The position numbers and the translations under genes are program-made. Below are positions 9,778-64,000 of a stretch of DNA of 64,000 bases, piece after piece; the first letter of the stretch is position 1, and each line of letters begins with the position of its first letter. This stretch comes from Candidatus Iainarchaeum sp. (GTDB lineage: Archaea > Iainarchaeota > Iainarchaeia > Iainarchaeales > GCA-2688035): assembly GCA_017610175.1 (NCBI GenBank), contig JAFCCO010000002.1, forward strand, positions 43,319-107,318, given 5' to 3'. The notes beneath the pieces are model-generated. The model was given only the letters and a program-made list of their open reading frames with translations. It was not told the origin of the DNA and ran no database searches.

Positions 9778-10595
9778 ACAGATTCGAGCGCATGTCTGCA
9801 AGGCTGAGGCCAAAGGGAGAGGGCGCATTAATGCCTTTTGTGGTTCTTGGCGACCCAAATTATGAGCAGTCGCTTGAGCTAATCAAAACACTTATTGACA
9901 ATGGAGCGGACGCGCTTGAGCTTGGTTTTCCGTTTTCCGACCCTATTGCGGACGGTTCAACCGTGCAGGAAGCGGACCAGAGAGCGCTTGCTTCCGGGAT
10001 GAACACGGACAAGTGCTTTTCTCTCTTAAAGGAAATAAGGGAATACAATTCTGATATTCCAATCGGGCTGCTTGTTTACTACAACCTTGTTTTTCAAAGG
10101 GGTTTGTCCAGCTTTTGCGGGGATGCAAAAAAGGCAGGTGTTGATGCCTTGCTTATAGCGGATATGCCTATTGAGGAGTCAAACGCAATTATGGGTGCGT
10201 CCTGGAAGCACGGGATTTCACAGGTTTTTCTGGTTGCTCCAACAACAGGCGATGCGAGAATAAAGCAGATTGCGTCCCTTTGCTCGGGCTATCTTTACAT
10301 TGTTTCCCGCTTGGGCGTTACGGGAGCAAGGGATTCGCTGCAGGTAAGCACACTTGAACTTGTTCAAAGGGTAAGAAAACACACTCAACTTCCTTTGATG
10401 GTTGGTTTTGGAATAAGCAAACCCATGCACATACATGATGTTATTGCGGCGGGAGCGGACGGCGCAATTGTTGGCTCCGCTTTAATTAAGATTGTTTCAA
10501 AAAATCTTGTTAATCGCCGAAAAATGCTCAAAGACGTTGCCTCATTCATTGCCGAACTCAAGAAGGCAACAGTTTCCAAACCGGGCAAAAACTAG
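9774..10595 (+). CDS. trpA: Tryptophan synthase alpha chain
   Basis: TrpA motifs ([19 protein letters not shown]). Confidence 0.93.
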
Positions 10596-10631: not shown

Positions 10632-10703
10632 GGGCCCTTAGTCTAGTGGTAGGACGCATCCTTCGCAAGGATGAGATCCCGGGTTCAATCCCCGGAGGGT
10701 CCA
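10632..10703 (+). tRNA. tRNA-Ala (anticodon CGC) with the G3:U70 identity pair
   Basis: Acceptor GGGCCCT/AGGGTCC, including the G3-U70 wobble; anticodon loop UUCGCAA; T-loop TTCAATC; followed by TTTTT. Confidence 0.85.
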
Positions 10704-11552: not shown

Positions 11553-11593
11553 ACCAACTACTTTCCCCTCCTTTTCTTTTTTTTTTAACGCGT

Positions 11594-12310
11594 TCAGGCT
11601 TCGCCCTCTAATGAGAAATAGATTCTTCTGTTGTTCTTTCCCTTGTTTTTCATTCCCTCAATCTTAATCTTTCCAACTTCATCAGTATTCCTAACGTGGG
11701 TTCCACCATCAGCGGTTATATCAACTCCGCCAATGTCCACAATCCTAAGCACTTCAACAGCCTTTGGAAGCTTGTCCTTTAGCCTAATAATTCCCGGAAT
11801 CTTAAACGCCTCTTCCCTTGGCAAAAACTTCACTTCAATCGGAAGATTTCTTGCAAGCAGTTCATTCGCTTTCTCCACAAATCCGTTAAGCAATTCACGG
11901 TCGAAATTTTCCACACAAAAGTCCATTCTGCTCTTTTCAACATCCAATTGGTTGCCGCTGATTAGCGCACCGGTTTCGCCAAAAATCACGTTGTGCAAAA
12001 TGTGTGCGGCAGTATGCATTCTCATAAGCTTGTAGCGCCTTTTCCAGTCAAGAACACACAAAACATTGTCTCCCTCTTTTAAGCCCTGCTCGCTGACTTC
12101 ATAGCTTACATCTGTTCCAAAATCCTTGCCAAAAAGCACGTTGAATTCATTCCCCTGCAGGATAATTTTTCCAAAATCAGAGGGTTGCCCTCCCTTCTCA
12201 GGATAGAATGCGCTCTTGTCAAGCACAACAAATTTTGAAGCAGTTACCTTTTCAATTCTGGCTCTCCACTCCCTGATGTAGGAGTTTTTCATCCAGAGTT
12301 TTTCAGTCAT
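11594..12310 (-). CDS. alaX: Alanyl-tRNA editing protein AlaX (AlaRS second-additional-domain homolog)
   Basis: HxxxH zinc motif (HTAAHILHNV) and GGTHV motif; 238 aa. Confidence 0.85.
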   Translation of the reverse strand: MTEKLWMKNSYIREWRARIEKVTASKFVVLDKSAFYPEKGGQPSDFGKIILQGNEFNVLFGKDFGTDVSYEVSEQGLKEGDNVLCVLDWKRRYKLMRMHTAAHILHNVIFGETGALISGNQLDVEKSRMDFCVENFDRELLNGFVEKANELLARNLPIEVKFLPREEAFKIPGIIRLKDKLPKAVEVLRIVDIGGVDITADGGTHVRNTDEVGKIKIEGMKNKGKNNRRIYFSLEGEA

Positions 12311-13403
12311 TTTGCTTTCCCGAAACTTCGTTGACGGCTTTTACAAACAGACCGGCACTCCATGCATAAAAAGGTTCCGACTTAAGCAGCAGTGAATTAA
12401 TCGGTTTTCCCTCAAAGAAAACCTCGTGCACAGAGCCGTTTCCATTAATCACCTGCGCAATTCTCTTAAGTTCCTGCTTCGGCTCTTTCTTCAGTCCAAT
12501 TTTCTTCATTGCAATCGCATTCAGTGAGCCCAGCCACAGCCAGCTGCTTGTGTTGTGGTAGTGGTATGCATCAAGTGGAAACAGCCCGGGCGGAATTCTC
12601 CAAAAAGGGTATGCCGGGTAGTTTGCCTGAAGAGGCACCTTGCTTAGTTGGTGCTGCTTTATTTTGTTCTGGATCATTTGCCCCTGCTCTTTGTCGGCAA
12701 TTCCAAAAAGAATTGAAAGCACGTTCCCGTCAGCACAAAAGTTGTCGTGCCTTGTCAAATCAATCCAGTCCGCGTAATAATTTCCCTGCCAGAACTTGCT
12801 GTTTATCTGCTGCTTAACCCTTTCTGCAAGCCTTGAGTGCTCCTCCGCAACCTTGTCAAGCTTCATTAACTCGGCAAGCTCTGCAAAATCCTTCAGTGCC
12901 TTGTAGTAAAGGCAGTTTGAGTAAAGAACTTTTCCGCTTTTCAGCACGGTTTCCTGCCAGCCGGCAAAAAAGGGCTCCTCCAAAAGCAGGTCCCGATCAA
13001 AGTCCCTGCGTTTCAGCCAGGTTATTGCCTTTCTTGCGTTCTCAAAATGCTTTTGCACAAACTTTCTGTCCCTTGACTTGTCGTAATAATCCTTTAGTGC
13101 AATTACCGCAAGCGCGTTCCCATCTAGGGGCTCTGAGACAATGTGGTGAAAGTGGGGCTTTAGCTTGTATTCTATCCGGTGTGGGATTAGCCCGTCCCTT
13201 CTCTGCTTTGCAAAAAACAGGTCAAGTGATTTCCAGGAAGCGGTAAATTCGCCCATGCTGTTTGCGCCAAGCGAGGCAAAGAAAGAGTTTCTTGCCTTGT
13301 AATAGTTCATTTTGCCCCTGCCGGCAAGAATGCCGTGTTCGGCAAAACAATTGTGTAAATCCCTTAATGCAATGTTAAAAGCTTCCTTAACCTCTGGATG
13401 CAT
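12303..13403 (-). CDS. Six-hairpin glycoside-hydrolase-like protein (GDE/GH63-like); function uncertain
   Basis: Aromatic-rich (alpha/alpha)6-barrel-like sequence (FFAGWQE, WLWLGS); family assigned by general resemblance only. Confidence 0.45.
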   Translation of the reverse strand: MHPEVKEAFNIALRDLHNCFAEHGILAGRGKMNYYKARNSFFASLGANSMGEFTASWKSLDLFFAKQRRDGLIPHRIEYKLKPHFHHIVSEPLDGNALAVIALKDYYDKSRDRKFVQKHFENARKAITWLKRRDFDRDLLLEEPFFAGWQETVLKSGKVLYSNCLYYKALKDFAELAELMKLDKVAEEHSRLAERVKQQINSKFWQGNYYADWIDLTRHDNFCADGNVLSILFGIADKEQGQMIQNKIKQHQLSKVPLQANYPAYPFWRIPPGLFPLDAYHYHNTSSWLWLGSLNAIAMKKIGLKKEPKQELKRIAQVINGNGSVHEVFFEGKPINSLLLKSEPFYAWSAGLFVKAVNEVSGKQND

Positions 13404-15147: not shown

Positions 15148-16950
15148 TCACTCCCACTCGATTGTTGCAGGCGGCTTGTGCGTTATGTCAAAGAGAACCG
15201 AACCGATTCCCTCAATTGCAAGAACATCGCCCGAAATTTCTTTGAGTACGGCCTCTTTCATGGGATAAAAGCGTGCAGTCATTGCCTCCATGCTTTCAAC
15301 AGGCCTGAGAACAATGCTTTCCCCGTCTCCGTTAACGCGCAGCGGAAGCAGAACGGTTGGGAACTGCCAGATTTCCTTCATCAAATCGTGCTCTGCAATT
15401 TTCTCCATTGCAATTGCGTCAGCCTCTCTCAAAAGTTCAATTCTTCCCCTGTTTAGGTCTGCTGCAAGCAGTTCAACAGATTCAATTTGGGGCGGTGCAA
15501 CAAGCTTTAGCACACGGTTGATTTCCCTGATTTCGTTGGTTATTTTGGTGCTTGCTTTTTCAAGCACTCCCCAGTCACTTTCCCCGCCGACCAAAACGCA
15601 TGGGTGGGCATAAGTTCTTGCGTCACCCTGCACTCCAACGCTCTTAATGGGTAGAATTTTAACTCCTAAATCAAATTCTTTTGCAATTTTACCCGCTTTT
15701 GCCTCAATTTCTTCAAGAGAATTCTCTTTTCCGTCAGAGCAAAGGCACCTTATTGCAAGTCCCGGTCCGGGAAAAGGATGTCTCCAAACCATTTCGTGCG
15801 GCAAGCCAAGCTCCTCTCCGAGCTCGCGCACCTCGTCCTTGTATAGCTGGTCAAGCGGCTCGACAACAAGCCCTTGCTCAATTAGTTCCACTATTGAGTC
15901 AACCCTGTTGTGGTGTGTTTTGATTTTTGCGGCGTGCTTTGTTCCTGCGGTTTCAATTGTGTCGGGGTAAATCGTGCCCTGCCCAAGCAGCCACTCCTCC
16001 GGGTCGAGTTCAAGCTTTCTCAATTCCCTGTTCTGAATTTCAATAAACTTTTCCCCAATAATTTTTCTCTTGCTCTCAGGCTCTAGTTCCCCCTTCACAC
16101 CCTCAAAAAAATCTTCGCCCGCATTTACAACGTGGAAATTTCCAAACCCGAGCTTTTCAAGTTCCCGCTCAACGTTTTCACTTTCGTCTTTTCTCATAAA
16201 TCCTGTGTCAACGTGCAGGGCATAAATCTTTTCGCTTCCAAGCGCCTTGTGCAGGAGAGCGAGCGCAACCGTGCTGTCAACCCCGCCAGAGGCGAGAAGG
16301 AAAACGTTCTTCTTGCCCACCTGTTTCTTTATTTCCCCACACTTTTGTGCGATGTAATTCTTTGTTGTCCAGTCCTGTTTGCATCCGCAAACTCCTTTCA
16401 CAAAATTTTCAAGCATTTTCAATCCGTTGGGTGTGTGCGTTACCTCCGGGTGGAATTGGAATCCAAAAAAGTTTCGTGAAAAGTTCGCCACCGCCGCATT
16501 TTTGCAGTCCGGAGTGCTTGCAATTACCTCAAACCCTTTTCCCAACCCCCCAACCTTGTCGCCATGCGACATCCACACTGTTTCTTTTTCCTCAAGCCCT
16601 TCAAACATTTTGTTTTCCTTTGAAACCTCTATCTCGGCAAGCCCGTACTCACGAACATTTCCCTGCTCCACCTTCCCGCCAGTCTGCTGTGCCATCAACT
16701 GGTGTCCATAACAGAGACCAAGAATTGGAATTCCAAGCGAAAAGATTTCTGGGTTGAATGGCGGCGCGTCTTTCTCATACACTGAGCTTGGTCCACCGCT
16801 TAAAATTATTCCTTTTGCCTTTCTGAGTTTTTCTGTTGGGGCGTCTGGCTCAAGAATTTCGGAAAAAACGTGAAGTTGCCTGACCCTTCTTGCAATCAGA
16901 TGCGCATACTGCGCACCAAAGTCAAGCACTATAATCTTGTTTTCTTCCAT
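15148..16950 (-). CDS. guaA: GMP synthase (glutamine-hydrolysing), fused GATase plus ATP-pyrophosphatase
   Basis: N-terminus KIIVLDFGAQY; SGGVDS PP-loop; C-terminus ...HKPPATIEWE, near-identical to the E. coli GuaA C-terminus. The ORF-track N-terminal extension to 17127 is rejected; start taken at MEENK. Confidence 0.9.
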   Translation of the reverse strand: MEENKIIVLDFGAQYAHLIARRVRQLHVFSEILEPDAPTEKLRKAKGIILSGGPSSVYEKDAPPFNPEIFSLGIPILGLCYGHQLMAQQTGGKVEQGNVREYGLAEIEVSKENKMFEGLEEKETVWMSHGDKVGGLGKGFEVIASTPDCKNAAVANFSRNFFGFQFHPEVTHTPNGLKMLENFVKGVCGCKQDWTTKNYIAQKCGEIKKQVGKKNVFLLASGGVDSTVALALLHKALGSEKIYALHVDTGFMRKDESENVERELEKLGFGNFHVVNAGEDFFEGVKGELEPESKRKIIGEKFIEIQNRELRKLELDPEEWLLGQGTIYPDTIETAGTKHAAKIKTHHNRVDSIVELIEQGLVVEPLDQLYKDEVRELGEELGLPHEMVWRHPFPGPGLAIRCLCSDGKENSLEEIEAKAGKIAKEFDLGVKILPIKSVGVQGDARTYAHPCVLVGGESDWGVLEKASTKITNEIREINRVLKLVAPPQIESVELLAADLNRGRIELLREADAIAMEKIAEHDLMKEIWQFPTVLLPLRVNGDGESIVLRPVESMEAMTARFYPMKEAVLKEISGDVLAIEGIGSVLFDITHKPPATIEWE

Positions 16951-30743: not shown

Positions 30744-31583
30744 ATGCCCGCAAAATTGATAGACGGAAAAGGTATTGCCGCAAAAGTCCTTGAAGCAGCT
30801 AAATCGCGAGTTTCAGGGCTTTCCTTCAAGCCAGTGCTGGCCGTTGTTTTGGTTGGGGAGGACCCTGCTTCAAAGCTTTATGTGCAGAAAAAGCAGGATG
30901 CCTGCGAAAACGTTGGCATTGAATCAAAACTTGTTTCATTCCCTGAAACAATTTCACAGCAGGATCTGATTGCAAAGATTGAGGCGCTCAATTCAGACGA
31001 AAGCGTGAACGGAATCCTTGTGCAACTCCCTTTGCCCAAAGGGCTTGACAGGAACGCGGTTCTTGAAACGGTTTCCCCCTCAAAGGATGTGGACGGATTC
31101 ACTGCCGAAAACCTTGGGCTTCTTGCTCTGGGGGTTGAGGAAATGGTTTCCTGCACTCCAAAGGGAATAATTAAGCTGATTGAGTCAACCGGAACGGACT
31201 TGAAGGGAAAGAACTGCTGCATTGTAAACCACAGCATTGTTGTGGGGAGGCCTCTTGCACAGCTTTTCCTGAACAGGAACGCAACGGTTTCAATCATCCA
31301 CCAGTTCACAAAGGACTTGTCCGAGTTCACCAAAAATGCGGACGTTGTGATTACTGCCGCAGGTGTTTCGGATTTGATTAAGGCGGACATGGTAAAAGAC
31401 GGCGCAATTGTAATTGATGCCGGAATTGCCCGCAAGAACGGAAAGCTTGTTGGGGACGTTGACTTTGAGGCTGTAAAGGAAGTTGCTTCATTCATTACAC
31501 CTGTTCCGGGCGGAGTCGGCCCAATGACCGTTGCTTGCCTGATTGACAACACAATTGTTGCCGCAGAAAATCAGCGCAGGTAA
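30744..31583 (+). CDS. folD: Methylene-THF dehydrogenase / methenyl-THF cyclohydrolase
   Basis: Bifunctional FolD motifs (ILVQLPLP, VVGRPL, GGVGPMT). Confidence 0.93.
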   Translation: MPAKLIDGKGIAAKVLEAAKSRVSGLSFKPVLAVVLVGEDPASKLYVQKKQDACENVGIESKLVSFPETISQQDLIAKIEALNSDESVNGILVQLPLPKGLDRNAVLETVSPSKDVDGFTAENLGLLALGVEEMVSCTPKGIIKLIESTGTDLKGKNCCIVNHSIVVGRPLAQLFLNRNATVSIIHQFTKDLSEFTKNADVVITAAGVSDLIKADMVKDGAIVIDAGIARKNGKLVGDVDFEAVKEVASFITPVPGGVGPMTVACLIDNTIVAAENQRR

Positions 31584-32326
31584 TTCCATTCCTTTCCCGC
31601 AAACTTTTCCCTAAGCTCTTGAGCAAGGGTTTTTTCTTCAGCCGTTAATTCCGACGGGACAAGTTTTGCTCCGAATGTTTTTTTAAAGCCCGCAGCCATT
31701 GCGTCCTCCATGTCCCTGAAGCTGTACTGCCTCTTTGTTTCAAACTCAAGGGATGTTACGCGCTGCTTTACACTCTCAATAATCTTTCCCTTCATTTTTT
31801 CATCTGGGACCTTTAGCAGTGAAAACATCTTGTCAACCCCTACCTCTAACAGAAGCGTTCCGTGCTGCAGAATGTTTCCGCCCCTTCTTGTCTGCGCGTT
31901 TCCGCTAATTTTTTTCCCGTTAACAATTATGTCGTTCAGCGGCACAAAGTCTGCCTTAACATTAAGCTCGTTCAATCCCGCAACAATTGCCCCGCAAATC
32001 TTTCCATAGCTTTCAAGGATATTTTTTGAAACAAGCTTGCTTTCCTCGCTGCAAACAAAGCTGTATGTAAGCTCTTTTTCGTGAAAAACCGCTCCCCCTC
32101 CGGTAATTCTTCTCACAACATCGCAGTCAAGCTCTTTTGCCTTCTCCAAATCAACTTCCTCGTTGATTCCCTGGAAATACCCGATGCTTACCGCATGCGG
32201 TTTCCAGCCGTAAAAGCGAACAACAGGCTTGTCCCCGTTTTTGTGAAGCCTCATTATTGCCTCATCTGTAGCCATGTTTGTTGCGGCATCGGAAAAACCA
32301 GTGCAAAGCAGCCTAAATTCATTCAT
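31571..32326 (-). CDS. lplA: Lipoate-protein ligase A, catalytic N-terminal subunit (split form)
   Basis: BPL/LPL catalytic-domain motifs (RRITGGGAVFHE); 251 aa. Confidence 0.85.
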   Translation of the reverse strand: MNEFRLLCTGFSDAATNMATDEAIMRLHKNGDKPVVRFYGWKPHAVSIGYFQGINEEVDLEKAKELDCDVVRRITGGGAVFHEKELTYSFVCSEESKLVSKNILESYGKICGAIVAGLNELNVKADFVPLNDIIVNGKKISGNAQTRRGGNILQHGTLLLEVGVDKMFSLLKVPDEKMKGKIIESVKQRVTSLEFETKRQYSFRDMEDAMAAGFKKTFGAKLVPSELTAEEKTLAQELREKFAGKEWNYLR

Positions 32327-32607
32327 TTTGCGTTCTCTCCCGCTATTTTTATGGCTTGGGCAAGTGCTTTTGTATTTAACCCAAACATTTCAATGGAATT
32401 TGCCTCAATTGCCTGGGCAATCACTGCCTCAAGCTCTTTTCCCATTTGTGCGCCCTCAAGTGCCTTTTCAATTGCCTCAATTCCGTCTTCCGGGTGCATA
32501 AAGAAATCGCCGTGAATTTTCACCGAACTGATTTTATCGCTTTCCAGCTCAAGTGAAAGCCTTACAAGTTTGCCGTCAGGCACCTTATATATTGCTTCTC
32601 CCTTCAT
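32323..32607 (-). CDS. Lipoate-protein ligase C-terminal accessory subunit (LplB-like)
   Basis: 94 aa, overlaps the lplA start by 4 nt; the arrangement matches the known split LplA of Thermoplasma. Confidence 0.65.
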   Translation of the reverse strand: MKGEAIYKVPDGKLVRLSLELESDKISSVKIHGDFFMHPEDGIEAIEKALEGAQMGKELEAVIAQAIEANSIEMFGLNTKALAQAIKIAGENAK

Positions 32608-43143: not shown

Positions 43144-43280
43144 GCCGGCGTGGCGGAGCGGTCAAACGCGGTGGCCTTGAGGCACCCTTTCTTTGAAAGA
43201 AAGCGTGCACGGAAAGAATCCGTGGGTGCAAGTGAGCCATTTTCCGAAAGGAAGCACAGGTTCGAATCCTGTCGCCGGCG
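43144..43280 (+). tRNA. tRNA-Ser (anticodon TGA) interrupted by a roughly 53-nt intron after position 37
   Basis: Class II tRNA fold. Acceptor GCCGGCG/CGCCGGC; D-arm GCG-GAGCGGTCAAA-CGC, near-identical to the neighbouring tRNA-Ser(GGA); anticodon stem GTGGC/GCCAT; anticodon loop CU-UGA-G then an insertion at 43182-43234 whose ends pair GCACCC/GGGTGC; long variable arm TTTCCGAAAGGAAGC; T-arm ACAGG-TTCGAAT-CCTGT. The exact splice junctions and the BHB geometry are not resolved by eye. Confidence 0.65.
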
Positions 43281-49395: not shown

Positions 49396-49479
49396 GCGGG
49401 AGTCCGATAGTGGCCAATTCGGCCAGGTTGAGGGCCTGGTGGCTTAGTGCCTTCGGGAGTTCGAATCTTCCCTCCCGCA
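49396..49479 (+). tRNA. tRNA-Leu (anticodon GAG)
   Basis: Class II fold: acceptor GCGGGAG/CTCCCGC; anticodon stem CCAGG/CCTGG with loop UUGAGGG; long variable arm; T-loop TTCGAAT. Confidence 0.85.
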
Positions 49480-54189: not shown

Positions 54190-55899
54190 ATGGTTTCCCC
54201 AAAACAGAAAATAGCAAAAGCGCTCGAGAGCGCTCTTGAAAAACAGCTTTCGCAGGAAGAAATTCTTTCAATGCTTGAGGTTCCGCCACAGCCTGAAATG
54301 GGAGACTTTGCATTCCCCTGCTTCAAGCTGTCCAAAATCCTGAAAAAGGCTCCGCAGGAAATTTCGGCAGAGCTTTCAACCAAAATCAAGCTCCCGTCCA
54401 TGGTTTCCGAGGCAAAAATAGCAGGGCCATACCTCAACTTTTTTGTGAAAAAGGATTGGGCTGCAAAGCAGGCAATTTCAGCAGTGCTCAAGCAAGGGGA
54501 CCTGTACGGTTTTGGAAAGGCCGGCAGGGGGAAAAAGGTAATGATTGAATACTCTGCCCCAAACACAAACAAGCCGCTGCACGTCGGGCACTTGAGGAAC
54601 GACTGCATTGGCATGTCCATTGGAAACATCCTTGAGGCAACAGGGCACAAGGTAACGCGTGCAAACCTTGTGAATGACAGGGGGATTCATATCTGCAAAA
54701 GCATGCTTGCATATAAAAAATGGGGTAAGGGCAAGGAGCCAAACAAGAAGTCAGACCACTTTGTGGGGGACTACTATGTTCTGTTCAACCAGAAGGTAAA
54801 GGAAGACCCTTCGCTTGAGGAAGAGGCCCGCTTTTTGCTGAAGAAGTGGGAGAACAAGGACAAGGAAACGCTTGCGCTGTGGAAAAAAATGAACGCATGG
54901 GCCTTCAAGGGATTCAAAGAGACGTACAAATCGTTTGGAACAAGGTTTGATGTTTGGCTGAAAGAGTCTGAATTCTTTGACAAGGCAAAGCCGATTATTG
55001 AGGATGGATTGGAGAAAGGGGTTTTCTTTGAGGACGACAACGGGGCAATCGTTGCAGGGCTCGAACACCACAACATCCCAAACAAGGTTGTTCTTCGCTC
55101 GGACGGCACATCAATTTACATCACAAACGATTTGGCTCTTACAAAACACAAGTTTGAACACTTTAAGCTTGACCAGGCAATTTGGGTTGTTGCAAGCGAG
55201 CAAAACCTTTACTTCCAGCAGCTCTTCAAAATCTTTGAACTGCTTGGATTCGGGTGGGCAGGCTCCTGTAAGCACAGAAGCTATGGAATGGTTTACCTTC
55301 CGGAAGGGAAGATGAAGTCAAGGGAGGGAACGGTTGTTGACGCGGACAATTTGTTTGAGGACATGTCAGCTCTTGCAGCCAAAGAAGTGAAGAAGCGCTA
55401 TCCAAAACTTTCAAAGGCAGAGCTTGAAAAGAGGGCAAAGGCAATCGCGCTTGCGGCAATAAAATTCTACATGCTAAAGGTTGACGAGGCAAGGGATTTG
55501 CAGTTCAATCCAAAGGAAAGCCTTTCATTCGAGGGCGAAACAGGGCCTTACATCCAGTACACTTTTGCGCGGGCAAAAAGTATTCTGCGCAAGGCAAAGA
55601 AGCCAAAGAAGGTTGATTATTCAAAGCTTGAAACAGATTTGGAAAAGCAGATTGTAATGCTTTTATACAAGTTCCCGCAGACCGTTGAGAAGGCAGCACT
55701 TTCCCTGCAGCCACATCTTGTTTCACAGCATTTGATTGAGCTTGCGACCTCATTCAATTCGTTCTACCACTCAAGCCGCGTGCTGAACGCGGAGTCAGAA
55801 GAGCTTGCAAACGCAAGGCTTGCCCTTGTTGAGGCGGTTGCACAGGTAGTGAAGAATGGACTTAATCTGCTGAACATTAAGCCGATTGAAAAGATGTAA
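54190..55899 (+). CDS. argS: Arginyl-tRNA synthetase
   Basis: HVGHLRN (HIGH-type) motif, and a C-terminal DALR anticodon-binding domain ending ...PIEKM. Confidence 0.95.
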   Translation: MVSPKQKIAKALESALEKQLSQEEILSMLEVPPQPEMGDFAFPCFKLSKILKKAPQEISAELSTKIKLPSMVSEAKIAGPYLNFFVKKDWAAKQAISAVLKQGDLYGFGKAGRGKKVMIEYSAPNTNKPLHVGHLRNDCIGMSIGNILEATGHKVTRANLVNDRGIHICKSMLAYKKWGKGKEPNKKSDHFVGDYYVLFNQKVKEDPSLEEEARFLLKKWENKDKETLALWKKMNAWAFKGFKETYKSFGTRFDVWLKESEFFDKAKPIIEDGLEKGVFFEDDNGAIVAGLEHHNIPNKVVLRSDGTSIYITNDLALTKHKFEHFKLDQAIWVVASEQNLYFQQLFKIFELLGFGWAGSCKHRSYGMVYLPEGKMKSREGTVVDADNLFEDMSALAAKEVKKRYPKLSKAELEKRAKAIALAAIKFYMLKVDEARDLQFNPKESLSFEGETGPYIQYTFARAKSILRKAKKPKKVDYSKLETDLEKQIVMLLYKFPQTVEKAALSLQPHLVSQHLIELATSFNSFYHSSRVLNAESEELANARLALVEAVAQVVKNGLNLLNIKPIEKM

Positions 55900-56187: not shown

Positions 56188-58896
56188 CTATTCGAGAACA
56201 ATTGCCGGTTTTGCCGGCAGGGCATTTCTTGCCTTTGGAATCTTGCTTTTTTCGGCCTTTTCAATTTTTACCTTGCAGGCAAACTCTTTCTCAAGCTCGG
56301 CAGAAACATCTTTTAAGGCCTTGAACTCGTCTATTTTTGTTGCCTCGCGGTATTCGCCTAGCTTTTTTACAATCGCTTTAACGAATCCAGGCATTTCCTT
56401 TGCATTTACACCCTTTACTTTTGAGGCGGCCTTCATTGCGCCCCCGAAGTCAGGCTTTTCCCCAACAGCTTTGCGGATTGCTGAAATTGCATCCCACTTC
56501 CACTCGGGCGCAACAATCAATGTCATTGTTCCAATTTTTTCAATCTTTGCAAGCTCCTTTACCTGCGCAACGTCCTGCTTCACGCTGTCAAGCAGTGCTT
56601 CCGCTGCCTCGGCGCCCTTGTCTATAAGTTTCTCGTTTGCTTTAGGCCAGTTGGCAACCGAAACAAAGCCCTTTTTTCCGATTCTGTTCCAGAGTTCCTC
56701 GCTGATGTGCGGCGCAAACGGTGAAAGCAGCTTAAGAATTGTTTCGACACAGAATCCTTTCAGGTTCTTGTCTGCGCCTACGTGCCTTTCCTTTCTGAGC
56801 TCCTCCACCAGTTTTACGATTGCCGCAATCGCATAGTTGATGTGCTTTTCCTCAAGCTCGTGGGTTGTTGTAAGAATTGCCCTGTGTGTTTTGGAGAGCA
56901 GCAGCTTTTCAGAGCTTGAAAGATTTGAAGCATCAATTTTGCCAAACCCAAGCTTATTCTTTTCGGTTTCAACAAAGTCAATCACGCGGTTTAGGAACCT
57001 AAAAACGCTTTCAACCCCTTTTTCGTTCCACTCAAGCTCTTTCTCAGGCAGGGCGGAATAAAGCATGAACATCCTTGCGGTGTCTGTATTGAACTTGTTG
57101 ATTATTTCCATTGGGTCGACAACGTTTCCAAAGCTTTTGCTCATCTTTCTTCCGTCCTTGATTACCATTCCCTGTGTGAACAGCCTCTCGAACGGTTCAT
57201 CGATATTAATGAATCCGCAGTCGCGCAAAGCCTTTGTGAAAAACCTTGCGTAAAGCAAGTGTAAGATTGCATGCTCTATTCCCCCAATGTACTGGTCTAC
57301 AGCCATCCACTTGTGTACAATGTCCTTGCTAAACGGCTCTTTCCTGTTTTTCGGGTCGCAGTACCTTAGGAAATACCAAGACGAGTCAAAGAACGTGTCC
57401 ATTGTGTCTGTTTCCCTTTTTCCCTTTCCGCCGCATTTTGGGCAGGGGCAGTTCACAAACTTTTCGCTTGTGGTTAGCGGGTTTTTGCCACCAAACTTTA
57501 CCTCGCTTGATTCAGGGAGCAGCACAGGCAAGTCCTTTTCCGGAACGGGGTTTGCCCCGCACTTTTCGCAGTAAATTATGGGAATTGGCGTGCCCCAAAA
57601 CCTTTGCCTTGAAATAAGCCAGTCCCTTAGCCTGAAGTTAACTGTTTTCTTTCCCTTTTTGTCTTTCTCAAGCCAGTTTGAAATGTCCTCAATTGCCTTG
57701 CGGTTCTCCAAACCGGTGAACTGCGCACTGTTTACAAGAATTCCCTCGTCCACATAGGCCTTGCCCATGTTGAATGCGTCAAGTTCCTTTCCCTTTGGCT
57801 GAATCACAACGCGTTTCTGCAGCCCGTATTTTTCCGCAAACTCAAAGTCCCTTTGGTCGTGTGTTGGGACACACATTACCATTCCGGTTCCGTATCCGCT
57901 AACTGCAAAGTCAGCCGCAAAGATTGGAATCACTTCATCATTAACCGGGTTAACTGCGTACTTTTCGAGGAAAATTCCCCTCTTTTCCTTTCCCTCCGCA
58001 AGCCGGTCAATCAGGCTCTCCCCCTTTACCTCTTCAACAAATTTCTTGACGTCTGCTTCGTTTTCCGTTCCCTTCACAAGCTTTTTAACCATCGGGTGCT
58101 CGGGGGCAATTGCAAGGAATGTCACCCCAAACAGCGTGTCCGGCCTTGTGGTAAAAGTTGTAAGCGCTTCTCCGGAATCCTTTTCCTTAAAGAAAACTTC
58201 CACTCCCTCGCTTTTTCCAATCCAGTTCCTCTGCATTGTCTTAACTTTCTTTGGCCACTCGCCAAGCATACTCAAATCCTCAAGCAGTTCATCGGCGTAA
58301 TCGGTTATCTTCAAAAACCACTGTTCCAGTTCCTTTGCCTCAACCTCTGTGTCGTCGTGCCTCCAGCACTTCCCATCAACGACCTGTTCGTTTGCAAGAA
58401 CTGTCTGGCATTTCGGGCACCAGTTTACAGGGGCTTTTTTCTTGTAGGCCAGGCCCTTTTTCAAAAATTCGATGAAGAACTTCTGGTTCCACCTGTAGTA
58501 ATCCGGCCTGCAGGTTGCTAACTCCCTGTCCCAGTCATAGCTGTTTCCGAGAATGAACTGCTGTTCCCGCATGTCCTTTATTTGGTTTTCGGTCCATTCT
58601 TTTGGGTCGGCATTTTGCTTGATTGCCGCGTTCTCCGCAGGGAGCCCAAAGGAGTCGTATCCCATTGGGTAAAGTACGTTGAATCCCTGCATTCTCTTAA
58701 AGCGGGCAAACGCGTCCCCTATCGAGTAGTTTCGAACGTGGCCCATGTGCAGTCTGCCGGTTGGGTAGGGAAACATTTCAAGCACGTAGTAGCGCTTTTT
58801 CTTGCTTTTTTCATCGGCCTTGAAAACGCCTTCCTTTCTCCAGGCCTTTTGCCACTTTTCCTCAATTTTTCTGAAGTCCTTGCCCATTTTGGTCAC
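56188..58896 (-). CDS. leuS: Leucyl-tRNA synthetase, bacterial type
   Basis: [19 protein letters not shown]...[10 protein letters not shown]...TVLANEQV...KTMQRNWIG is collinear with, and highly similar to, E. coli LeuRS motifs; KMSKS is present. Confidence 0.95.
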
Positions 58897-58926
58897 CGAG
58901 CTTAGTATTTTTTAAGCAGGACAATA

Positions 58927-59121
58927 TTAAAGAAGGTTTCTGGTGGTTAAAACGTAGAATATAATGGTTATTGAAATAACTACCATAAACACTATGTCTC
59001 GCTTGGAAAGCTCCCAAACCTTGCCTTTCAGGCCAAGCTTTTCCTCAATTGTGTCAAGCCTTTTTTCAATTGCCCCAAGCCTTTTTTCAATTCCTTTCTC
59101 TTCCTTTTTTTCCTCAACCAT
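58927..59121 (-). CDS. Small coiled-coil / TM protein, hypothetical
   Basis: 64 aa; repeat IEKRLGAIEKRLDTIEEKLG; C-terminal TM helix. Confidence 0.3.
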   Translation of the reverse strand: MVEEKKEEKGIEKRLGAIEKRLDTIEEKLGLKGKVWELSKRDIVFMVVISITIIFYVLTTRNLL

Positions 59122-59161
59122 AGCGGTAGAATTAGCCGTTTTTCTTAATTAAACTTTCCTT

Positions 59162-59791
59162 TTATGCACCAACCGCCTTTTTTATGAATTTCCTGAACGG
59201 GAACCTTCCGTAAACAATGTCCCGCCCTGCAAAATGCTTCAAAACCCCGTCTTTTGGATAGCCCATTTTTACCGCAAGCTTTGCGGAAAGGATGTCAGCC
59301 ATCAGTTCCTCTGCCTGCTCAAAGCTCAGCCCGTAATGCATTGCAAACCCTGAGAGTGCCGGCTTTGGAAAGTGCGCATACTCGTGTGCAAGGGTAAAGA
59401 TTCCCCCAATTGTCAGCTTGTCGCCCTCGAACAAGTGCTCTGAAGGCATGTTGATGAAGTCGCTTTTTACCGCAAAAGCCCTGGTTCCCTTTTGGTAAAT
59501 TGTAATCTGGTTCACGTGCTCGCCCTTTACAACGCTTGCCATAACCCTTCCCCCTGCCCGAATTATTCGCTCGCGCAGGTTTCTTCTTGGGTAAAAGTAT
59601 ATTGGGGTTGTTTCGACATTGCGGCGCATCAGGCCGTAAATCTTTTCAGAGAGCTTGTCCGGCGCGCTCTTGTGCAGTTCCTTGAGGGCCTTTACAGCCT
59701 CTTTTCTGAATTTGTCAAGTGCCTTCTTTCGCTTGTTTGAAAGAATTGGCTTTTTGAAAAAAAGAAAAAGCATGAAACATAAAATGCTCAA
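59162..59791 (-). CDS. Putative zinc metallopeptidase-like protein (HExxH)
   Basis: The motif LAHEYAHF is the only recognisable feature. Confidence 0.4.
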   Translation of the reverse strand: MSILCFMLFLFFKKPILSNKRKKALDKFRKEAVKALKELHKSAPDKLSEKIYGLMRRNVETTPIYFYPRRNLRERIIRAGGRVMASVVKGEHVNQITIYQKGTRAFAVKSDFINMPSEHLFEGDKLTIGGIFTLAHEYAHFPKPALSGFAMHYGLSFEQAEELMADILSAKLAVKMGYPKDGVLKHFAGRDIVYGRFPFRKFIKKAVGA

Positions 59792-59804
59792 ACCTTATTT
59801 AACA

Positions 59805-61559
59805 TTATTCAATTACCGCCTTAATTCGCCTTACACCCGCAGCAACAGACTCTTCCTTCTTAATTTTGAACTTTCCAATGTCTTTTGTGTTTTCAACGTG
59901 TGGGCCTGCGCAAACTTCCTTGCTAAAACCCTCAACAGAGTAAACGCTTACCTTTTCGGGCGCATACTTTGAGTCAAAGAACGCAAGCGCGCCCGCCTTC
60001 TTTGCTTCTTTCAGACCCATTTCCTTGCGCTTTACAGGAATTGCTTTCTCAATCGCTTCGTTAACTATTTTTTCAACCTCTGCCCTCTGTTCAGGTGTAA
60101 CCTTTTCAGGGTGTGAGAAGTCAAAGCGCAGTCTTTCAGGGGTAATATTGCTTCCCTTCTGCTGAACGTGATTCCCCAAAACCTTTCTGAGCGCTGCGTG
60201 AAGCAGGTGTGTTGCTGTGTGCATTCGAACAGTTGTTTCGCTCTGGTCTTGCAGTCCGCTTTTGAAGCGCCCGGCTGTTGCTTTTCTTGACGTGTCCTGG
60301 TGTTTTTCAAACTCCTTTTCAAATATCTTTTTGTCAATTTTGATTCCTTTTTCTTCCGCAAGCTCAAGGGTCATCTCAATTGGGAAGCCAAAGCTTTGGT
60401 AGAGAAGGAATGCGTCCTCTCCCGAAATCTTTTTCTTTGCCTGCAAAATCCTTCCAAACCTATTAAGCCCGTTGGATAATACTTTTGAAAATCTGTCTTC
60501 TTCGCGCTCGAGCTCGAGGAAAATTAGCTCGCGCTCGCGCGTTAACTGCGGCCATTCAGCCCCGTAAATTTCAACAACAACTTCCGCAATTTTCCTGCAG
60601 AATCTTCCCTCAATTCCAAGCAGGCGCGCGTGCCTGATGCTTCGCCTAATCATTCTTCTAACAACATAACCCTGCTCAACATTGCTTGGGACAATTCCCT
60701 TGCCTTCTGAAAGCACAAAGCAGGATGACCTGATGTGGTCTGCAATAATTCTCTTTGACTTAAGCAAGTCGTTTTTGGAGAGGCCCTGGATTTTGTCCAT
60801 TATCGGCTTGAACAAATGCGTATCATAAACCGTTGCCTTCCCGTTCAGCATTGCAACAGTTCTCTCAACCCCCATTCCGGTGTCGACGTTTTGTTGCGCA
60901 AGCGGCTCAAATTTCCCTGCATCGGTCTTGTTGTACTGCATGAACACATCGTTCCAAATTTCAAAATACTTGCCGCAACCGCAGCCTGGCACGCACTTTG
61001 GCCCGCATTTTTCCTTTCCCATGTCGAAAAATATCTCGGTGTCAGGGCCGCAAGGGCCTGTTTTTCCAGCAGGACCCCACCAGTTGTCTTCCTTTGGGTT
61101 AAAGTAAATTCTTTCGACCGGAATCCCCTGAGATTCCCAAATTTTTGCGCTCTCTTCATCCTTTGGAGCGTCCTTATCCCCCTCAAAGCAGGTAACCGAA
61201 AGCCTGTTTTTGTCCAGGCCAATTACTTTTGTGAGGAATTCGTAGCTCCACTCAATTGCCTCTTTTTTGAAGTAATCCCCTAAAGACCAGTTGCCGAGCA
61301 TGAAAAAGAATGTTAAGTGTGATGCATCCCCAACCTCTTCAATGTCGTTTGTGCGGATGCATTTTTGCACGTTCACAAGCCTTTTTCCCTCAGGGTGCGG
61401 TTGACCAATAAGGAAGGGCACAAGCGGATGCATTCCCGCCGTTGTGAACAAAACGGTTGGGTCGTGCTCCGGAATAAGCGAGGCACTTGGAATGATTGCG
61501 TGCCCTTTTTTCTTGAAAAACTCTAGATAGCTTTCTGTAAGCTTTTTGCCTGTCCACAT
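59805..61559 (-). CDS. alaS: Alanyl-tRNA synthetase, bacterial/eukaryote-like type, lacking the C-Ala domain
   Basis: LFTTAGM, GPCGPDTEIFFD, WNDVFMQYNK, VDTGMGVER and the editing-site motif HTATHLLHAAL. The protein ends after the editing domain (584 aa). Confidence 0.9.
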   Translation of the reverse strand: MWTGKKLTESYLEFFKKKGHAIIPSASLIPEHDPTVLFTTAGMHPLVPFLIGQPHPEGKRLVNVQKCIRTNDIEEVGDASHLTFFFMLGNWSLGDYFKKEAIEWSYEFLTKVIGLDKNRLSVTCFEGDKDAPKDEESAKIWESQGIPVERIYFNPKEDNWWGPAGKTGPCGPDTEIFFDMGKEKCGPKCVPGCGCGKYFEIWNDVFMQYNKTDAGKFEPLAQQNVDTGMGVERTVAMLNGKATVYDTHLFKPIMDKIQGLSKNDLLKSKRIIADHIRSSCFVLSEGKGIVPSNVEQGYVVRRMIRRSIRHARLLGIEGRFCRKIAEVVVEIYGAEWPQLTRERELIFLELEREEDRFSKVLSNGLNRFGRILQAKKKISGEDAFLLYQSFGFPIEMTLELAEEKGIKIDKKIFEKEFEKHQDTSRKATAGRFKSGLQDQSETTVRMHTATHLLHAALRKVLGNHVQQKGSNITPERLRFDFSHPEKVTPEQRAEVEKIVNEAIEKAIPVKRKEMGLKEAKKAGALAFFDSKYAPEKVSVYSVEGFSKEVCAGPHVENTKDIGKFKIKKEESVAAGVRRIKAVIE

Positions 61560-61610
61560 TGTTAAAACCTAAAATATCGTGGGTTGGAAAACTTTTAAAA
61601 ACAGCCTTTC

Positions 61611-62450
61611 TTACAGTGCCTGCCCCTTTCTAATCAGTTCGCCGGCTCCTCTTGCCGTATGCTTTGCCTGGTCAATTATTGCAATAATTGGCTTGCGGGT
61701 TGATTTATCCCTTCCAAGAACAAATGAATTTCCCCAGTGAATATCAAGCTCGATTGGGATTTTTGGGTTTGCCCCGAAATTGTGCTTTTGTCCTTTTACA
61801 AGCGCTTTCTCCATTGCAGTGTCAACGCGCTGAAGCTCTTTTACAGTTAATCTCATTCCTGTTGCAAAGTTGCGAATCGCGCTTTCAGTCATCGTAAGGC
61901 TTAAAGGCCCGTCCCTAATTCTTGAGCCGGACATTGTTTCCCACACCTCAATAAATGTCGGGGCATGAATAAACTTTCTTGCTGTTATGCCGCTTGAAAC
62001 AAAGTAGTACTGCAGCGGTCTCACAATGAACGGAAGTTCAGGCCTTGCCTTCAAATAATTGTATATTGCAGTGTTTGCAACAAATTGAGTGAATCCGTCC
62101 GGCCGGTTCTTTTCCGAAACACTTTTTCTGTAAACTTTCAACGCAACCTTTGGAAGCCTCATGGTTTGCTTTTCACGCCTTGTCTTAAATGGGGTTTCCT
62201 CTGCGGCTGACAGAAGGAACAGCTTTGCGTGTTCCCCTGAACCAATTGGTTTTGGATGAATTCCCTTTGCAAACTCAACAATGTCGTGCCCGTTCTTAAC
62301 GCGAACTTTAACGCTTCTAAGCATTTCCCTGTAATTCAGCAGAAGCCTTTCCCCCCCGCGCGTTATAAGCAGTCCGCTTCTTTTTGCCCCAAGCGGGCTG
62401 TGGATAAGTTTTCCAAATTTGGTTGTTGTTCGCCTGTATCTTAGTGGCAT
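61611..62450 (-). CDS. Putative kinase-like protein (protein-kinase / APH fold), hypothetical
   Basis: Catalytic-loop-like DIHWGNSFV and a downstream IID. Start taken at MPLRY (62450), because the longer ORF-track version would run into the RNase P RNA gene. Confidence 0.45.
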   Translation of the reverse strand: MPLRYRRTTTKFGKLIHSPLGAKRSGLLITRGGERLLLNYREMLRSVKVRVKNGHDIVEFAKGIHPKPIGSGEHAKLFLLSAAEETPFKTRREKQTMRLPKVALKVYRKSVSEKNRPDGFTQFVANTAIYNYLKARPELPFIVRPLQYYFVSSGITARKFIHAPTFIEVWETMSGSRIRDGPLSLTMTESAIRNFATGMRLTVKELQRVDTAMEKALVKGQKHNFGANPKIPIELDIHWGNSFVLGRDKSTRKPIIAIIDQAKHTARGAGELIRKGQAL

Positions 62451-62507
62451 AATAAGGATGTAATGAATTTTGTTGTATAAAAACAGTTGGTTTGAAAAAA
62501 GAATAAA

Positions 62508-62791
62508 GTGTTGGGCTGTGGAGAGTAAGCCGGCTTCTGTTTCCCCGCAAATCCTCTCGAACAAGCGGGCAACCTGCATTTGCCTTAGCGGTTCAAAACC
62601 TTGCACCCGCACCGCATTGAAGCGATGACTGTTTCCCCGCCGTTTCAACCATATAGGTATCGTTTCTGTTCAGGGAAACTACCCTCTCGGATGTGTCTTT
62701 TGTCGGTATTGCTACCGGGGTGGCCGGACTTTCCTCAGCTGAAAACCCGTTAAACGGGCCAACCGTCGACAGGCCTTCCACTACCCAACAC
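62508..62791 (-). ncRNA. rnpB: RNase P RNA (about 284 nt)
   Basis: On the minus strand: the P4 5' strand GAGGAAAGTCCGG and the P4 3' strand ACAGAAGCCGGCTTA; the P1 ends pair (GTGTTGGG...CCCAACAC); a P3 hairpin CCCGTTTAACGGG; TGAAACGG; TATA-like TTTAAAT about 30 nt upstream; a T-rich tract downstream. Confidence 0.8.
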
Positions 62792-62851
62792 TATAATTTA
62801 TGTATAAGACTGAATTTAAATGTTTTGTTTGTGGTGTTTGGTTGGGAAAAA

Positions 62852-63430
62852 TTACATTGTTAGGCCTTCGTCCTTTCTCTTTCCCTTAACCAGTTCGAAG
62901 ATTTTTTGCTGCAGTTCCTCCGGTTCGGGCACAGCCTGAAGATTTCCCTCTGCACCCCACTTTCCCCGCATGCTTGCCTGCCCTGCAAGTGTCTGGATGT
63001 GGATTGAACCAAAGCCAAAAATGCTTTCAATAAAGGACCTTGAAATTATTACATCGCTTATTCTCTCAAGCGGAATGGAGTTAACGCTATAGCCAATCAG
63101 GCCGCGTTTTCCAACAACCCTCTTGTTTGTAATCCAGTAAAATCTCTTGTTGTAGTTCATTGAAGCGAAGGTATAGGGAATAACTACAATCGCAACAAGC
63201 CCTATCAGTGCCGTCACCAGTGCAAGAATTGCCCCCACAATACCGCCGATTGCCGCAAACAAAAATACAAGCGGGATTATAATCCAGAGGCCTCCGAACA
63301 GGATAATGAAAAACCATCCGATAAGTCCCTGCAGAAAAAACATCCATTTCAGGCCGGGCAGTGGCTTTATTGAATCAATAATCTTTTCCCCTTCCTGAAG
63401 CCTAAAAAATTTTAAGTAATCCTCTTCCAT
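62852..63430 (-). CDS. Bacterial-type PH-domain membrane protein (DUF304/YdbT-like)
   Basis: Two TM helices, then YWITNKRVVGKRGL...IPLERISDV. Start taken at MEEDY (63430). Confidence 0.6.
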   Translation of the reverse strand: MEEDYLKFFRLQEGEKIIDSIKPLPGLKWMFFLQGLIGWFFIILFGGLWIIIPLVFLFAAIGGIVGAILALVTALIGLVAIVVIPYTFASMNYNKRFYWITNKRVVGKRGLIGYSVNSIPLERISDVIISRSFIESIFGFGSIHIQTLAGQASMRGKWGAEGNLQAVPEPEELQQKIFELVKGKRKDEGLTM

Positions 63431-63549
63431 TTCAACCGATAGAAATATGTCTAAGGAGAATATAAAACTTTGGTTATAAAAAAAAGTTGTGAAACCGTGT
63501 TTTGGAAAGCCTAAAATGCAACTCAGGTTAGTGTTTTTCTTTTGAGAAA

Positions 63550-64000
63550 ATCCTCGGGTCCTTAGTATTGGTGCGCTGAACAAATCGCCGAAGCTTTTTG
63601 CGTACACGCCCAACCTATCAAACCGGTGTTCTACCGGAACCCTCGCCCCTACATTATTCCCTCAAGGAGAATAGTTTCGGGGATGATAGTCTCTTTTCGG
63701 GGGCCGCTTCGAGCTTAGATGCTTTCAGCTCTTATCGGCTACAGCGTGGCTACCCAGCAATGCCCTGTCGGACAACTGGTAGACTAGAGGCTGCGGCACT
63801 ACGTTCCTCTCGTACTCATAGTACCTTCCCTTCAGACCATCGACACTCCTAATAGATAGTATCCAAACTGGCTCGCACCGTTCTCAACCCAACTAACGTA
63901 AGGCTTTAATGAGTTAACACCTCCACCCTTGGCTGCTTATGCACAGCCAGGATGCCTTGAGACGCCGTGGGGTCGATATGGACTCTCACCCACGACCACA
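63550..64000 (-). rRNA. 23S rRNA, 3'-terminal portion (the gene continues beyond the window)
   Basis: The reverse complement contains the universally conserved GCTGAAAGCATCTAAGCTCGAA...GAAAAGAGAC, then ...TTGATAGG...GGGCGTGTA...CCAATACTAAGGACC. The 3' boundary is approximate. Confidence 0.85.

Follow-up and report, generated by a model that had tools for sequence, protein, structure and literature searches.

How do two neighbouring aminoacyl-tRNA synthetase genes of bacterial type come to lie in a genome whose RNA genes look archaeal? This question is raised by a 64,000-nucleotide stretch of DNA from Candidatus Iainarchaeum sp. (GenBank contig JAFCCO010000002.1, positions 43,319 to 107,318), which is referred to as the window in the following. 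A first reading of its sequence—the original prediction—had placed a bacterial-type leucyl-tRNA synthetase (LeuRS, gene leuS) and alanyl-tRNA synthetase (AlaRS, gene alaS) in an archaeal setting and left two ways out, namely replacement of several synthetases by transfer from bacteria or a lineage call in need of revision. Its span of 56188-64000 covers LeuRS, AlaRS, an RNase P RNA and the end of an rRNA; the GMP synthase GuaA and the tRNAs that it drew upon lie elsewhere in the window. The bacterial type of both synthetases is real, as both profile and structure scores favour it. LeuRS, however, is a chimera: it is bacterial-type to about residue 757 and continues as an archaeal C-terminal domain of ~145 residues. 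The best overall explanation, to which we give a probability of roughly 0.7, is an in-situ replacement of both genes—for leuS only to about residue 757, with the archaeal tail kept.

The leuS open reading frame (ORF) spans 56188-58896 on the minus strand and encodes 902 amino acids (aa). Translation probably begins at the ATG at 58887 (M4), as the homologues start at residue 4-7. The gene falls into two parts:

56626..58896, minus strand: leuS, bacterial-type body, residues 1 to ~757 (TIGR00396 and PF13603 matches)
56188..56625, minus strand: leuS, archaeal-type C-terminal tRNA-binding domain, residues ~758-902 and stop codon (P. horikoshii alignment, leuS_arch profile, AlphaFold)

The body comprises a Rossmann fold with HMGH and KMSKS, a CP1 editing domain at the bacterial position and the anticodon-binding helix bundle. 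On the bacterial profile TIGR00396 (leuS_bact), LeuRS scores 997.9 bits over residues 7-761 (cut-off 548.4), and on the archaeal profile TIGR00395 (leuS_arch) it stays at 298.8 bits, below the cut-off of 648.5 for the whole protein. Solved structures give the same order, with 840 bits for T. thermophilus, 731 for E. coli and 240 for P. horikoshii LeuRS. The CP1 editing domain is of bacterial type (PF13603 at residues 223-410, 225 bits); its motif TTRPDTLFG and a 17-residue stretch carrying GTG..HD..D are present in the translation, and the HIGH, KMSKS and CP1 editing motifs are intact. On the minus strand, a 15-residue motif is found at 58726-58770, a 10-residue motif at 58633-58662, KTMQRNWIG at 58216-58242 and KMSKS at 57133-57147; all peptides quoted in the original prediction, including PPATIEWE of GuaA at 15151-15174, lie on this strand at the expected places. 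Among 569 genomic matches in all, bacteria of many phyla align at residues ~7-757 alone, with 48-55% identity.

Collinearity with E. coli LeuRS, as had been claimed for the protein, thus holds to about residue 757 and fails for the last ~145 residues. The TIGR00396 match ends at profile position 781 of 843, and archaeal LeuRS profiles match residues ~571-902 up to their last position. When residues 556-902 are compared with the PDB, the full-length P. horikoshii LeuRS (1wz2) ranks first (its residues 641-967, E 1e-36) with an alignment that reaches the last residue of both proteins—MPLKPAIFIE in P. horikoshii and a 10-residue counterpart here—while bacterial LeuRS structures align just to about residue 760. 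Some archaeal genomes among the 569 matches align through residue 901-902. In a plasmid collection, every bacterial leuS match ends at residues 731-789, and the leuS of the haloarchaeon Haladaptatus (L081) is collinear over 1-902. The small C-terminal domain with which bacterial LeuRS bind the tRNA elbow (~60 aa, with the end ...VVPGKLVNIVV) was not found in the protein, with no bacterial alignment extending past residue ~757-790.

The boundary can be located by a 40-residue sliding window. Identity to the ten closest bacteria is 0.4-0.78 to about residue 740, drops to 0.39 at 721-760, then to 0.14 and then to 0, and is 0 beyond residue 820. Beyond the boundary, identity to native archaeal-type LeuRS climbs to 0.36-0.55. 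Hence, a bacterial N-terminal region and an archaeal C-terminal domain are joined in one polypeptide, with the crossover at ~740-760. The AlphaFold model of residues 746-902 has a predicted local distance difference test score (pLDDT) of 90.6, and a structure search of the PDB with this model finds only archaeal and eukaryotic cytoplasmic LeuRS (1wz2, 6lpf, 6lr6, 6kid; TM 0.59-0.66) and no bacterial LeuRS. The tail therefore corresponds to the large C-terminal domain known from P. horikoshii. A tail-only search of 1.84 billion representative proteins gave 269 matches; among those listed, all reach the C terminus of their protein, and each of the ten full-length matches that were classified is a chimera with a bacterial body or a true archaeal-type LeuRS.

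This boundary recurs in chimeric LeuRS of Diapherotrites, Woese-, Pace- and Nanoarchaeota. Some of these proteins differ in length. In the Woese-, Pace- and Nanoarchaeota chimeras (L008, L012, L013, L025, L063, L071), which measure only ~830 aa, the tail is ~60 residues shorter but retains its KPGKPGIYLE end. Five further chimeras of DPANN archaea (P0004, P0094, P0247, P0261, P0373) reach 1018-1082 aa by insertions of 120-180 residues within the bacterial-type body.

The likely role of the tail can be read from archaeal enzymes. In P. horikoshii LeuRS, it recognises A47c/G47d on the variable-arm tip of tRNA-Leu via Asp845, Ile849, Pro962, Ile964, Ile966 and Glu967 (PMC4005665). For NmLeuRS1 of the haloarchaeon Natrialba magadii, charging is abolished by deleting the tail or its conserved terminal Ile, by mutating A47c/G47d and also by putting the E. 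coli tail in place of its own (PMC4005665). The P. horikoshii contacts D845, I849, P962, I964, I966 and E967 correspond to D775, V779, P897, I899, L901 and E902 here. The match is exact for D775, P897, I899 and E902 and conservative for V779 and L901. The contact Asp is kept in 28/28 chimeras and 21/21 native enzymes, the contact Pro in 27/28 and 21/21. The presumed substrate is encoded in the window:

49396..49479, plus strand: tRNA-Leu(GAG), class II, presumed LeuRS substrate (ARAGORN and sequence)

This tRNA—the one tRNA-Leu in the window—is of the archaeal type: it has A73 and a variable arm GGC-UUAGU-GCC, whose tip A and G are 47c and 47d when counted from nucleotide 44. Given the conserved contacts, these identity bases and the haloarchaeal experiments of Fang et al. 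2014, we infer that LeuRS would combine bacterial-style activation and editing with archaeal-style tRNA selection, since it carries the archaeal C-terminal domain. Archaeal tRNA-Leu would be selected via A47c/G47d at the variable-arm tip, with this domain as the sole reader.

The second way out—that the lineage call needs revisiting—can be closed. Two RNA genes next to the synthetases serve as lineage markers:

63542..64000, minus strand: 23S rRNA 3' end, archaeal (RF02540 LSU_rRNA_archaea, 361 bits, model positions 2548-2987)
62514..62785, minus strand: RNase P RNA, archaeal (RF00373 RNaseP_arch, 85.9 bits, gathering score 84, full model)

The archaeal look of the 23S end is thereby borne out, and the Rfam classification that had been proposed as a check assigns the RNase P RNA to Archaea as well. 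The predicted tRNA intron is also there, with 53 nt within the anticodon loop of a class II tRNA at 43144-43280. ARAGORN labels this tRNA as Thr(tgt); when the intron is put at the canonical 37/38, the loop is CUUGAGA and the anticodon UGA, and the long variable arm and G73 are consistent with tRNA-Ser. Archaeal rRNA, archaeal RNase P RNA and an anticodon-loop tRNA intron are, hence, all in place, and each gene tested has archaeal sequences as its nearest relatives, the named ones being DPANN (Iainarchaeum/Diapherotrites). For LeuRS, the best relatives show 54-83% identity over 97-100% of length, with Diapherotrites, Woesearchaeota and Nanoarchaeota among the named ones and a metagenome-assembled genome (MAG) of Candidatus Iainarchaeum as the closest named match in a species-level genome collection. 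Over the best hits, this name stands at 67-80% identity and 'Candidatus ainarchaeum sp.' together with Diapherotrites at 58-72%, a placement by best-hit names rather than by a marker-gene tree. Iainarchaeum belongs to phylum Iainarchaeota of kingdom Nanobdellati (DPANN). By these best hits, the host is a DPANN archaeon close to Iainarchaeota (Diapherotrites).

Composition points in the same direction. Guanine-cytosine (GC) content is ~46% and flat along the window, and the comparison with neighbouring genes that had been suggested finds leuS, alaS and guaA indistinguishable from 47 other window genes in GC, GC at third codon positions (GC3) and codon usage. Archaeal relatives, flat GC and neighbour-like codon usage together argue for an archaeal host in which the synthetase genes have long been resident.

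Some observations on these markers can be added. The RNase P RNA lies only 2 bits above the Rfam gathering score and is, hence, very divergent. The longest ORF beside it (61611-62648) overlaps the RNA gene; the likely real product is that of 61611-62450, whose 279 aa match no Pfam or NCBIfam family. Two relatives labelled as bacterial—P0003 ('bacterium') and P0107 ('candidate division KSB1 bacterium')—fall inside the DPANN LeuRS clade and bear the archaeal tail, so that archaeal contigs have probably been binned wrongly here.

The neighbouring AlaRS would have been swapped in another manner, as its gene is bacterial-type throughout:

59805..61559, minus strand: alaS, small bacterial-type AlaRS, 584 aa (NF002436, PF01411, PF07973)

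AlaRS had been described as bacterial-type without the archaeal N terminus. The scores agree with this type—309-322 bits to solved bacterial AlaRS vs 151-165 to archaeal ones, and 264.6 bits on the archaeal TIGR03683, whose cut-off is 744.7—but the enzyme is a truncated 'small-AlaRS' and not a standard bacterial AlaRS. It matches NF002436 at full length (877.4 bits, cut-off 529; residues 5-584 to profile 4-593 of 595). Its FTTAGM, GPCGP and VDTGMGVER peptides lie at 61431-61448, 61044-61058 and 60861-60887 (minus strand). Catalytic, tRNA-recognition and editing-core domains are present, the last with the motifs HTATH and CAGPH. In alignment with the 876-aa Salmonella AlaS, residues 6-~435 pair with 7-~445 of that protein, and residues 426-582 pair with 536-698; no counterpart exists to Salmonella ~446-535 (the barrel subdomain, about 90-100 residues) or to 699-876 (~178 residues, including C-Ala). 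Hence, barrel subdomain and C-Ala are missing and the editing core is retained. An identical protein (P0121) is found on a public contig of 110.7 kb, relatives with 62-80% identity occur in Diapherotrites/'ainarchaeum', Micr-, Woese-, Aenigm- and Nanoarchaeota, and Bacillota plasmids also encode a short AlaRS (53% identity). Two further features concern alanine:

10632..10703, plus strand: tRNA-Ala(CGC) with G3:U70 and A73 (tRNA search and sequence)
11594..12310, minus strand: AlaX-like free-standing editing protein (PF07973 and C-terminal part of PF01411; matches the AlaRS editing region)

G3:U70 is the universal identity element of tRNA-Ala, and since its recognition is universal, the swap of a whole alaS gene would be unproblematic. 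The free-standing AlaX-like protein is encoded in the same window as this AlaRS without barrel and C-Ala.

Further evidence comes from the gene neighbourhood. Two further genes mark the locus:

59162..59791, minus strand: zincin-like ORF (HEYAH), 209 aa, between alaS and leuS (weak PF18818 match)
54190..55899, plus strand: argS, convergent with leuS (TIGR00456, 521 bits)

Related contigs carry this four-gene arrangement with different types of synthetase (percentages are identities to the protein of the window):

Window: alaS small, 584 aa; zincin-like ORF, 209 aa; leuS chimeric, 902 aa; argS convergent
L084: alaS archaeal-type, 845 aa (TIGR03683, 847 bits); zincin-like, 34%; leuS archaeal-type, 966 aa; argS convergent, 56%
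L085: alaS small, 72%; zincin-like, 32%; leuS archaeal-type, 977 aa; argS, 54%
L086 (Diapherotrites MAG): alaS archaeal-type, 891 aa; zincin-like, 57%; leuS archaeal-type, 957 aa; argS, 42%, further on
L002 (Iainarchaeum): alaS small, 80%; zincin-like, 68%; leuS chimeric, 66%; argS not on contig

UBA543 (L001) adds a chimeric LeuRS with an archaeal-type AlaRS. All 4/4 type combinations of alaS and leuS, hence, exist, and 3 of these share the four-gene arrangement. The P0248 contig, whose archaeal-type LeuRS bears the most similar tail among the full-length matches (46-49% tail identity), has the gene order of the window, and in Woese-, Pace- and Nanoarchaeota the chimeric LeuRS with its shortened archaeal tail adjoins a small AlaRS. 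The archaeal-type LeuRS of L084 has its relatives in Diapherotrites (54-60%, others up to 86%) and then in Altiarchaeota and Aenigmarchaeota (43-46%), a pattern that would fit vertical descent. Since relatives keep archaeal-type genes at the same conserved positions, the simplest reading of these arrangements is that alaS and leuS were displaced in situ, each separately. The chimera, the small-AlaRS and this conserved locus with varying gene types were all missed in the original prediction. The zincin-like ORF has kept a curiously steady linkage to the two synthetase genes in four related contigs, at 32-68% identity. In L086, a gene of the RelA/SpoT type (HD, RelA_SpoT, TGS, ACT; 10891-12594) is inserted between leuS and argS.

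According to the replacement reading, the ancestors would have carried ordinary archaeal alaS and leuS genes in a cluster of alaS, zincin-like ORF, leuS and argS on the opposite strand. Both synthetase genes of the lineage would then have been swapped in place for bacterial-type versions—alaS entirely, for a truncated small-AlaRS, and leuS up to the end of the anticodon-binding domain (~residue 757), so that the 3' end for the archaeal C-terminal domain was retained. The archaeal type is inferred to be ancestral. That a resident tail was retained, instead of a ready-made chimera being imported, appears to us slightly the better supposition.

This supposition draws on domain-wise identities of the window and its two closest relatives to other groups, with a bootstrap over columns. 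The tail (760-902) is 41.8% identical to native archaeal-type LeuRS of the L084/L085 group and 31.4% to chimeras of other DPANN, whereas the anticodon-binding domain (573-759) shows 27.4% and 45.4%, respectively. The bootstrap intervals of these differences, +0.05 to +0.17 for the tail and -0.23 to -0.13 for the anticodon-binding domain, exclude zero. As judged from these identities, the tail goes with the host lineage and the body with the bacterial-type clade, which fits retention of the resident 3' end or a later recombination with a resident copy.

The chimeric LeuRS and the small AlaRS are common to several DPANN groups at 50-80% identity: LeuRS to Diapherotrites/Iainarchaeota, Woese-, Pace- and Nanoarchaeota, AlaRS also to Micr- and Aenigmarchaeota. 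As the composition is ameliorated and both forms are shared across these groups, the transfers must be old, and the immediate source of the genes may be another DPANN archaeon rather than a bacterium. The proposed replacement of synthetases by bacterial-type genes, therefore, stands in substance, with old events and possibly a nearer donor than a bacterium.

A number of points weigh against this account. The tail-only neighbour-joining tree (144 columns) does not resolve, with bootstraps mostly <50%, and the claim of a resident tail is, hence, carried by pairwise identities. These could be distorted by unequal rates, as the tails of other-DPANN chimeras show 26-31% identity to everything else. 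The lineage labels of L084 and L085 follow from best hits, not marker genes. The count of one leuS copy covers the 64-kb window. The Rfam tRNA model does not match the tRNA-Leu at 49396-49479, even at E<=0.01 on a 141-nt stretch; the ARAGORN call was kept because the cloverleaf is canonical class II. Finally, the branching of DPANN bodies changes with the distance used: in the Kimura tree, a clade of Bacteria and the haloarchaeon lies with 84% support inside a DPANN grade, and with Scoredist this support is 47% and DPANN monophyly has 46%.

These body trees cover residues 8-757 and were calculated by neighbour-joining only, from Kimura or Scoredist distances; they are crude, and long-branch artefacts are likely. 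They answer the suggestion of a LeuRS phylogeny in part: the bacterial-type group separates from archaeal-type LeuRS with 100%, and whether DPANN forms a clade or a grade depends on the distance. No DPANN body is nested inside any sampled bacterial phylum in these trees. The body of L081, the sole haloarchaeal sequence used, groups weakly with Bacteria, and a grouping of DPANN with the haloarchaeon has a bootstrap of 1%. DPANN as donor of the haloarchaeal LeuRS-B is, hence, not supported in what amounts to a weak test with one sequence, the mean distance of L081 being 0.93 to DPANN vs 0.88 to Bacteria and thus no smaller to DPANN. As a tentative extension, the bacterial-type body might be a mobile module in DPANN that repeatedly entered different lineages by recombination at the anticodon-binding/C-terminal boundary and left resident tails in place, with DPANN bodies forming a deep lineage outside the sampled bacterial phyla. 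If so, these would be living representatives of the 'unsampled or extinct' stem-bacterial donor type that Andam et al. proposed for haloarchaeal LeuRS-B.

The alternative that survives best is a single ancient fusion in an early DPANN ancestor followed by vertical inheritance, whereby the archaeal-type leuS and alaS of some Iainarchaeota would have been re-acquired at the same locus and the likeness of tails would reflect slow evolution or gene conversion. The shared boundary of chimeras from Diapherotrites to Nanoarchaeota would follow naturally, as would the adjoining leuS and small alaS genes of Woese-, Pace- and Nanoarchaeota, and the lack of resolution in the tail tree leaves room for it. 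Yet the tail of the window is 42% identical to native and 44% to chimeric Diapherotrites LeuRS and only 31% to chimeras of other DPANN, the relatives of archaeal-type LeuRS follow DPANN taxonomy, and the existence of all four gene-type combinations would require several re-acquisitions. We consider this alternative unlikely, though worth keeping in view.

Far less probable is a reversed direction, with a bacterial-type body that goes back to the ancestors of DPANN or to a stem lineage common to them and Bacteria, so that Bacteria would be nested within this diversity. The Kimura tree, when rooted on archaeal-type LeuRS, has this shape with its 84% clade in a DPANN grade, and in the work of Andam et al. 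2012 (PMC3436685), the LeuRS-B of haloarchaea came out basal to Bacteria. Against this stand the Scoredist values of just 47% and 46%, the long-branch attraction that is expected between fast-evolving DPANN and a distant outgroup, and the archaeal-type LeuRS of Altiarchaeota, Aenigmarchaeota and some Diapherotrites.

A recent direct transfer from a bacterium into this genome is more doubtful still. In its favour, bacterial LeuRS bodies are closely similar (48-55% identity) and the bacterial profiles are matched far above their cut-offs, but GC and codon usage do not deviate, DPANN archaea supply all of the nearest relatives (58-83% identity), no DPANN sequence lies within a sampled bacterial phylum, and genes and order recur in independent assemblies. 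Finally, a bacterial host or a bacterial fragment joined to archaeal DNA in assembly or binning, for which the labels of P0003 and P0107 could speak, has a negligible chance, as both genes are flanked within 5 kb by archaeal RNA genes, with tRNA genes to one side and RNase P RNA and 23S rRNA to the other, composition is uniform, LeuRS itself includes an archaeal domain, and the arrangement is found again in several independent contigs.

Both kinds of enzyme are already known, and for LeuRS just the lineage is new; the sequences can be found in public databases with routine annotation. In haloarchaea, a chimeric LeuRS was described in 2014, namely for Natrialba magadii (NmLeuRS1/2) and for Haloarcula hispanica (Fang et al. 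2014, PMC4005665). It is the LeuRS-B of Andam et al. 2012 that branches at the base of Bacteria (PMC3436685). The haloarchaeal enzyme shares with LeuRS of the window the bacterial-type Rossmann fold, CP1 and helix bundle up to the WP motif (Met1-Pro756 in NmLeuRS1, ~757 here), the archaeal C-terminal domain ending in P-x-I-x-(I/L)-E and a host tRNA-Leu with A47c/G47d, and the Haladaptatus protein is collinear over 1-902 in one piece. It differs in that identity is 42% overall and 22% in the tail, its body groups with Bacteria, and the window belongs to a non-halophilic DPANN archaeon. Since the haloarchaeal body does not group with DPANN bodies (1% bootstrap), the two fusions are probably independent, at the same domain boundary. 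The canonical P. horikoshii LeuRS (1wz2) shares the C-terminal domain in sequence (E 1e-36), fold (TM 0.66) and tRNA contacts, but the two bodies differ in type, with 27% identity and with CP1 at the bacterial position in the protein of the window. The latter is, therefore, a full member of neither the bacterial type, whose tail it lacks, nor the archaeal type, whose body it lacks.

AlaRS of the window does not differ from known small-AlaRS (NCBIfam NF002436 / PRK01584), which has only catalytic, tRNA-recognition and editing-core domains and lacks cradle-loop barrel and C-Ala; added here is its position, where related genomes carry an archaeal-type AlaRS. Small-AlaRS has been reported in DPANN, Asgard, Thermoplasmatota as well as in CPR (the candidate phyla radiation), with the archaeal copies ascribed to bacterial transfer (bioRxiv 10.1101/2023.05.29.542759). 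In literature of incomplete coverage—most subscription journals lie outside it—we found no account of a chimeric LeuRS in DPANN or of a polymorphic alaS/leuS locus. Xenologous displacement in situ, in which a distant homologue with the same function takes the place of a gene in a conserved neighbourhood and the flanks remain, was reportedly described by Omelchenko et al. in Genome Biology in 2003; the leuS case differs in that the exchange ends within the gene, at a boundary between domains, and yields a chimera.

Aminoacyl-tRNA synthetases are often used as domain-level markers, and here two adjacent ones carry the 'wrong' domain signal in a genome that is unmistakably archaeal; they should, hence, be excluded or treated carefully when DPANN genomes are checked for contamination or marker sets are compiled. 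LeuRS also offers a natural experiment: on at least two occasions, among haloarchaea and among DPANN, archaea have come to use a body of bacterial type for catalysis and editing, each time joined to an archaeal tRNA-binding tail at the same boundary. Such a pattern speaks for tRNA identity rules, and not catalysis, as the limit on the transfer of synthetases across domains. With the polymorphic alaS/leuS/argS locus of Iainarchaeota, there is a set of close relatives from which one could reconstruct how, and in which sequence, such replacements took place.

The remaining claims concern genes away from this locus:

15148..16950, minus strand: guaA, fused glutamine amidotransferase and ATP-pyrophosphatase GMP synthase (NF000848, 603 bits)

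That GuaA is a fused enzyme is confirmed by this match and by PDB scores of 380-438 bits for fused bacterial and eukaryotic enzymes vs 130-201 for the two-subunit archaeal forms; among solved structures, the human GMP synthase and not a bacterial one comes closest (438 bits). GuaA is ~75-90 residues longer than that of E. coli, with the extra residues in the C-terminal part. The split LplA is likewise found, as two adjacent ORFs at 31571-32326 and 32323-32607.

The stretches 4034-10595 and 17780-43073 are rich in biosynthesis, with a trp operon, citramalate synthase, purB/C/H, folC, folD, SHMT, the glycine cleavage system and lipoate enzymes. Bacterial gene acquisition by Diapherotrites was proposed by Youssef et al. 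2015, as cited in PMC12329446. Many of the biosynthetic genes in these stretches score best on bacterial-style family models, which fits this reported gain of bacterial anabolic genes.

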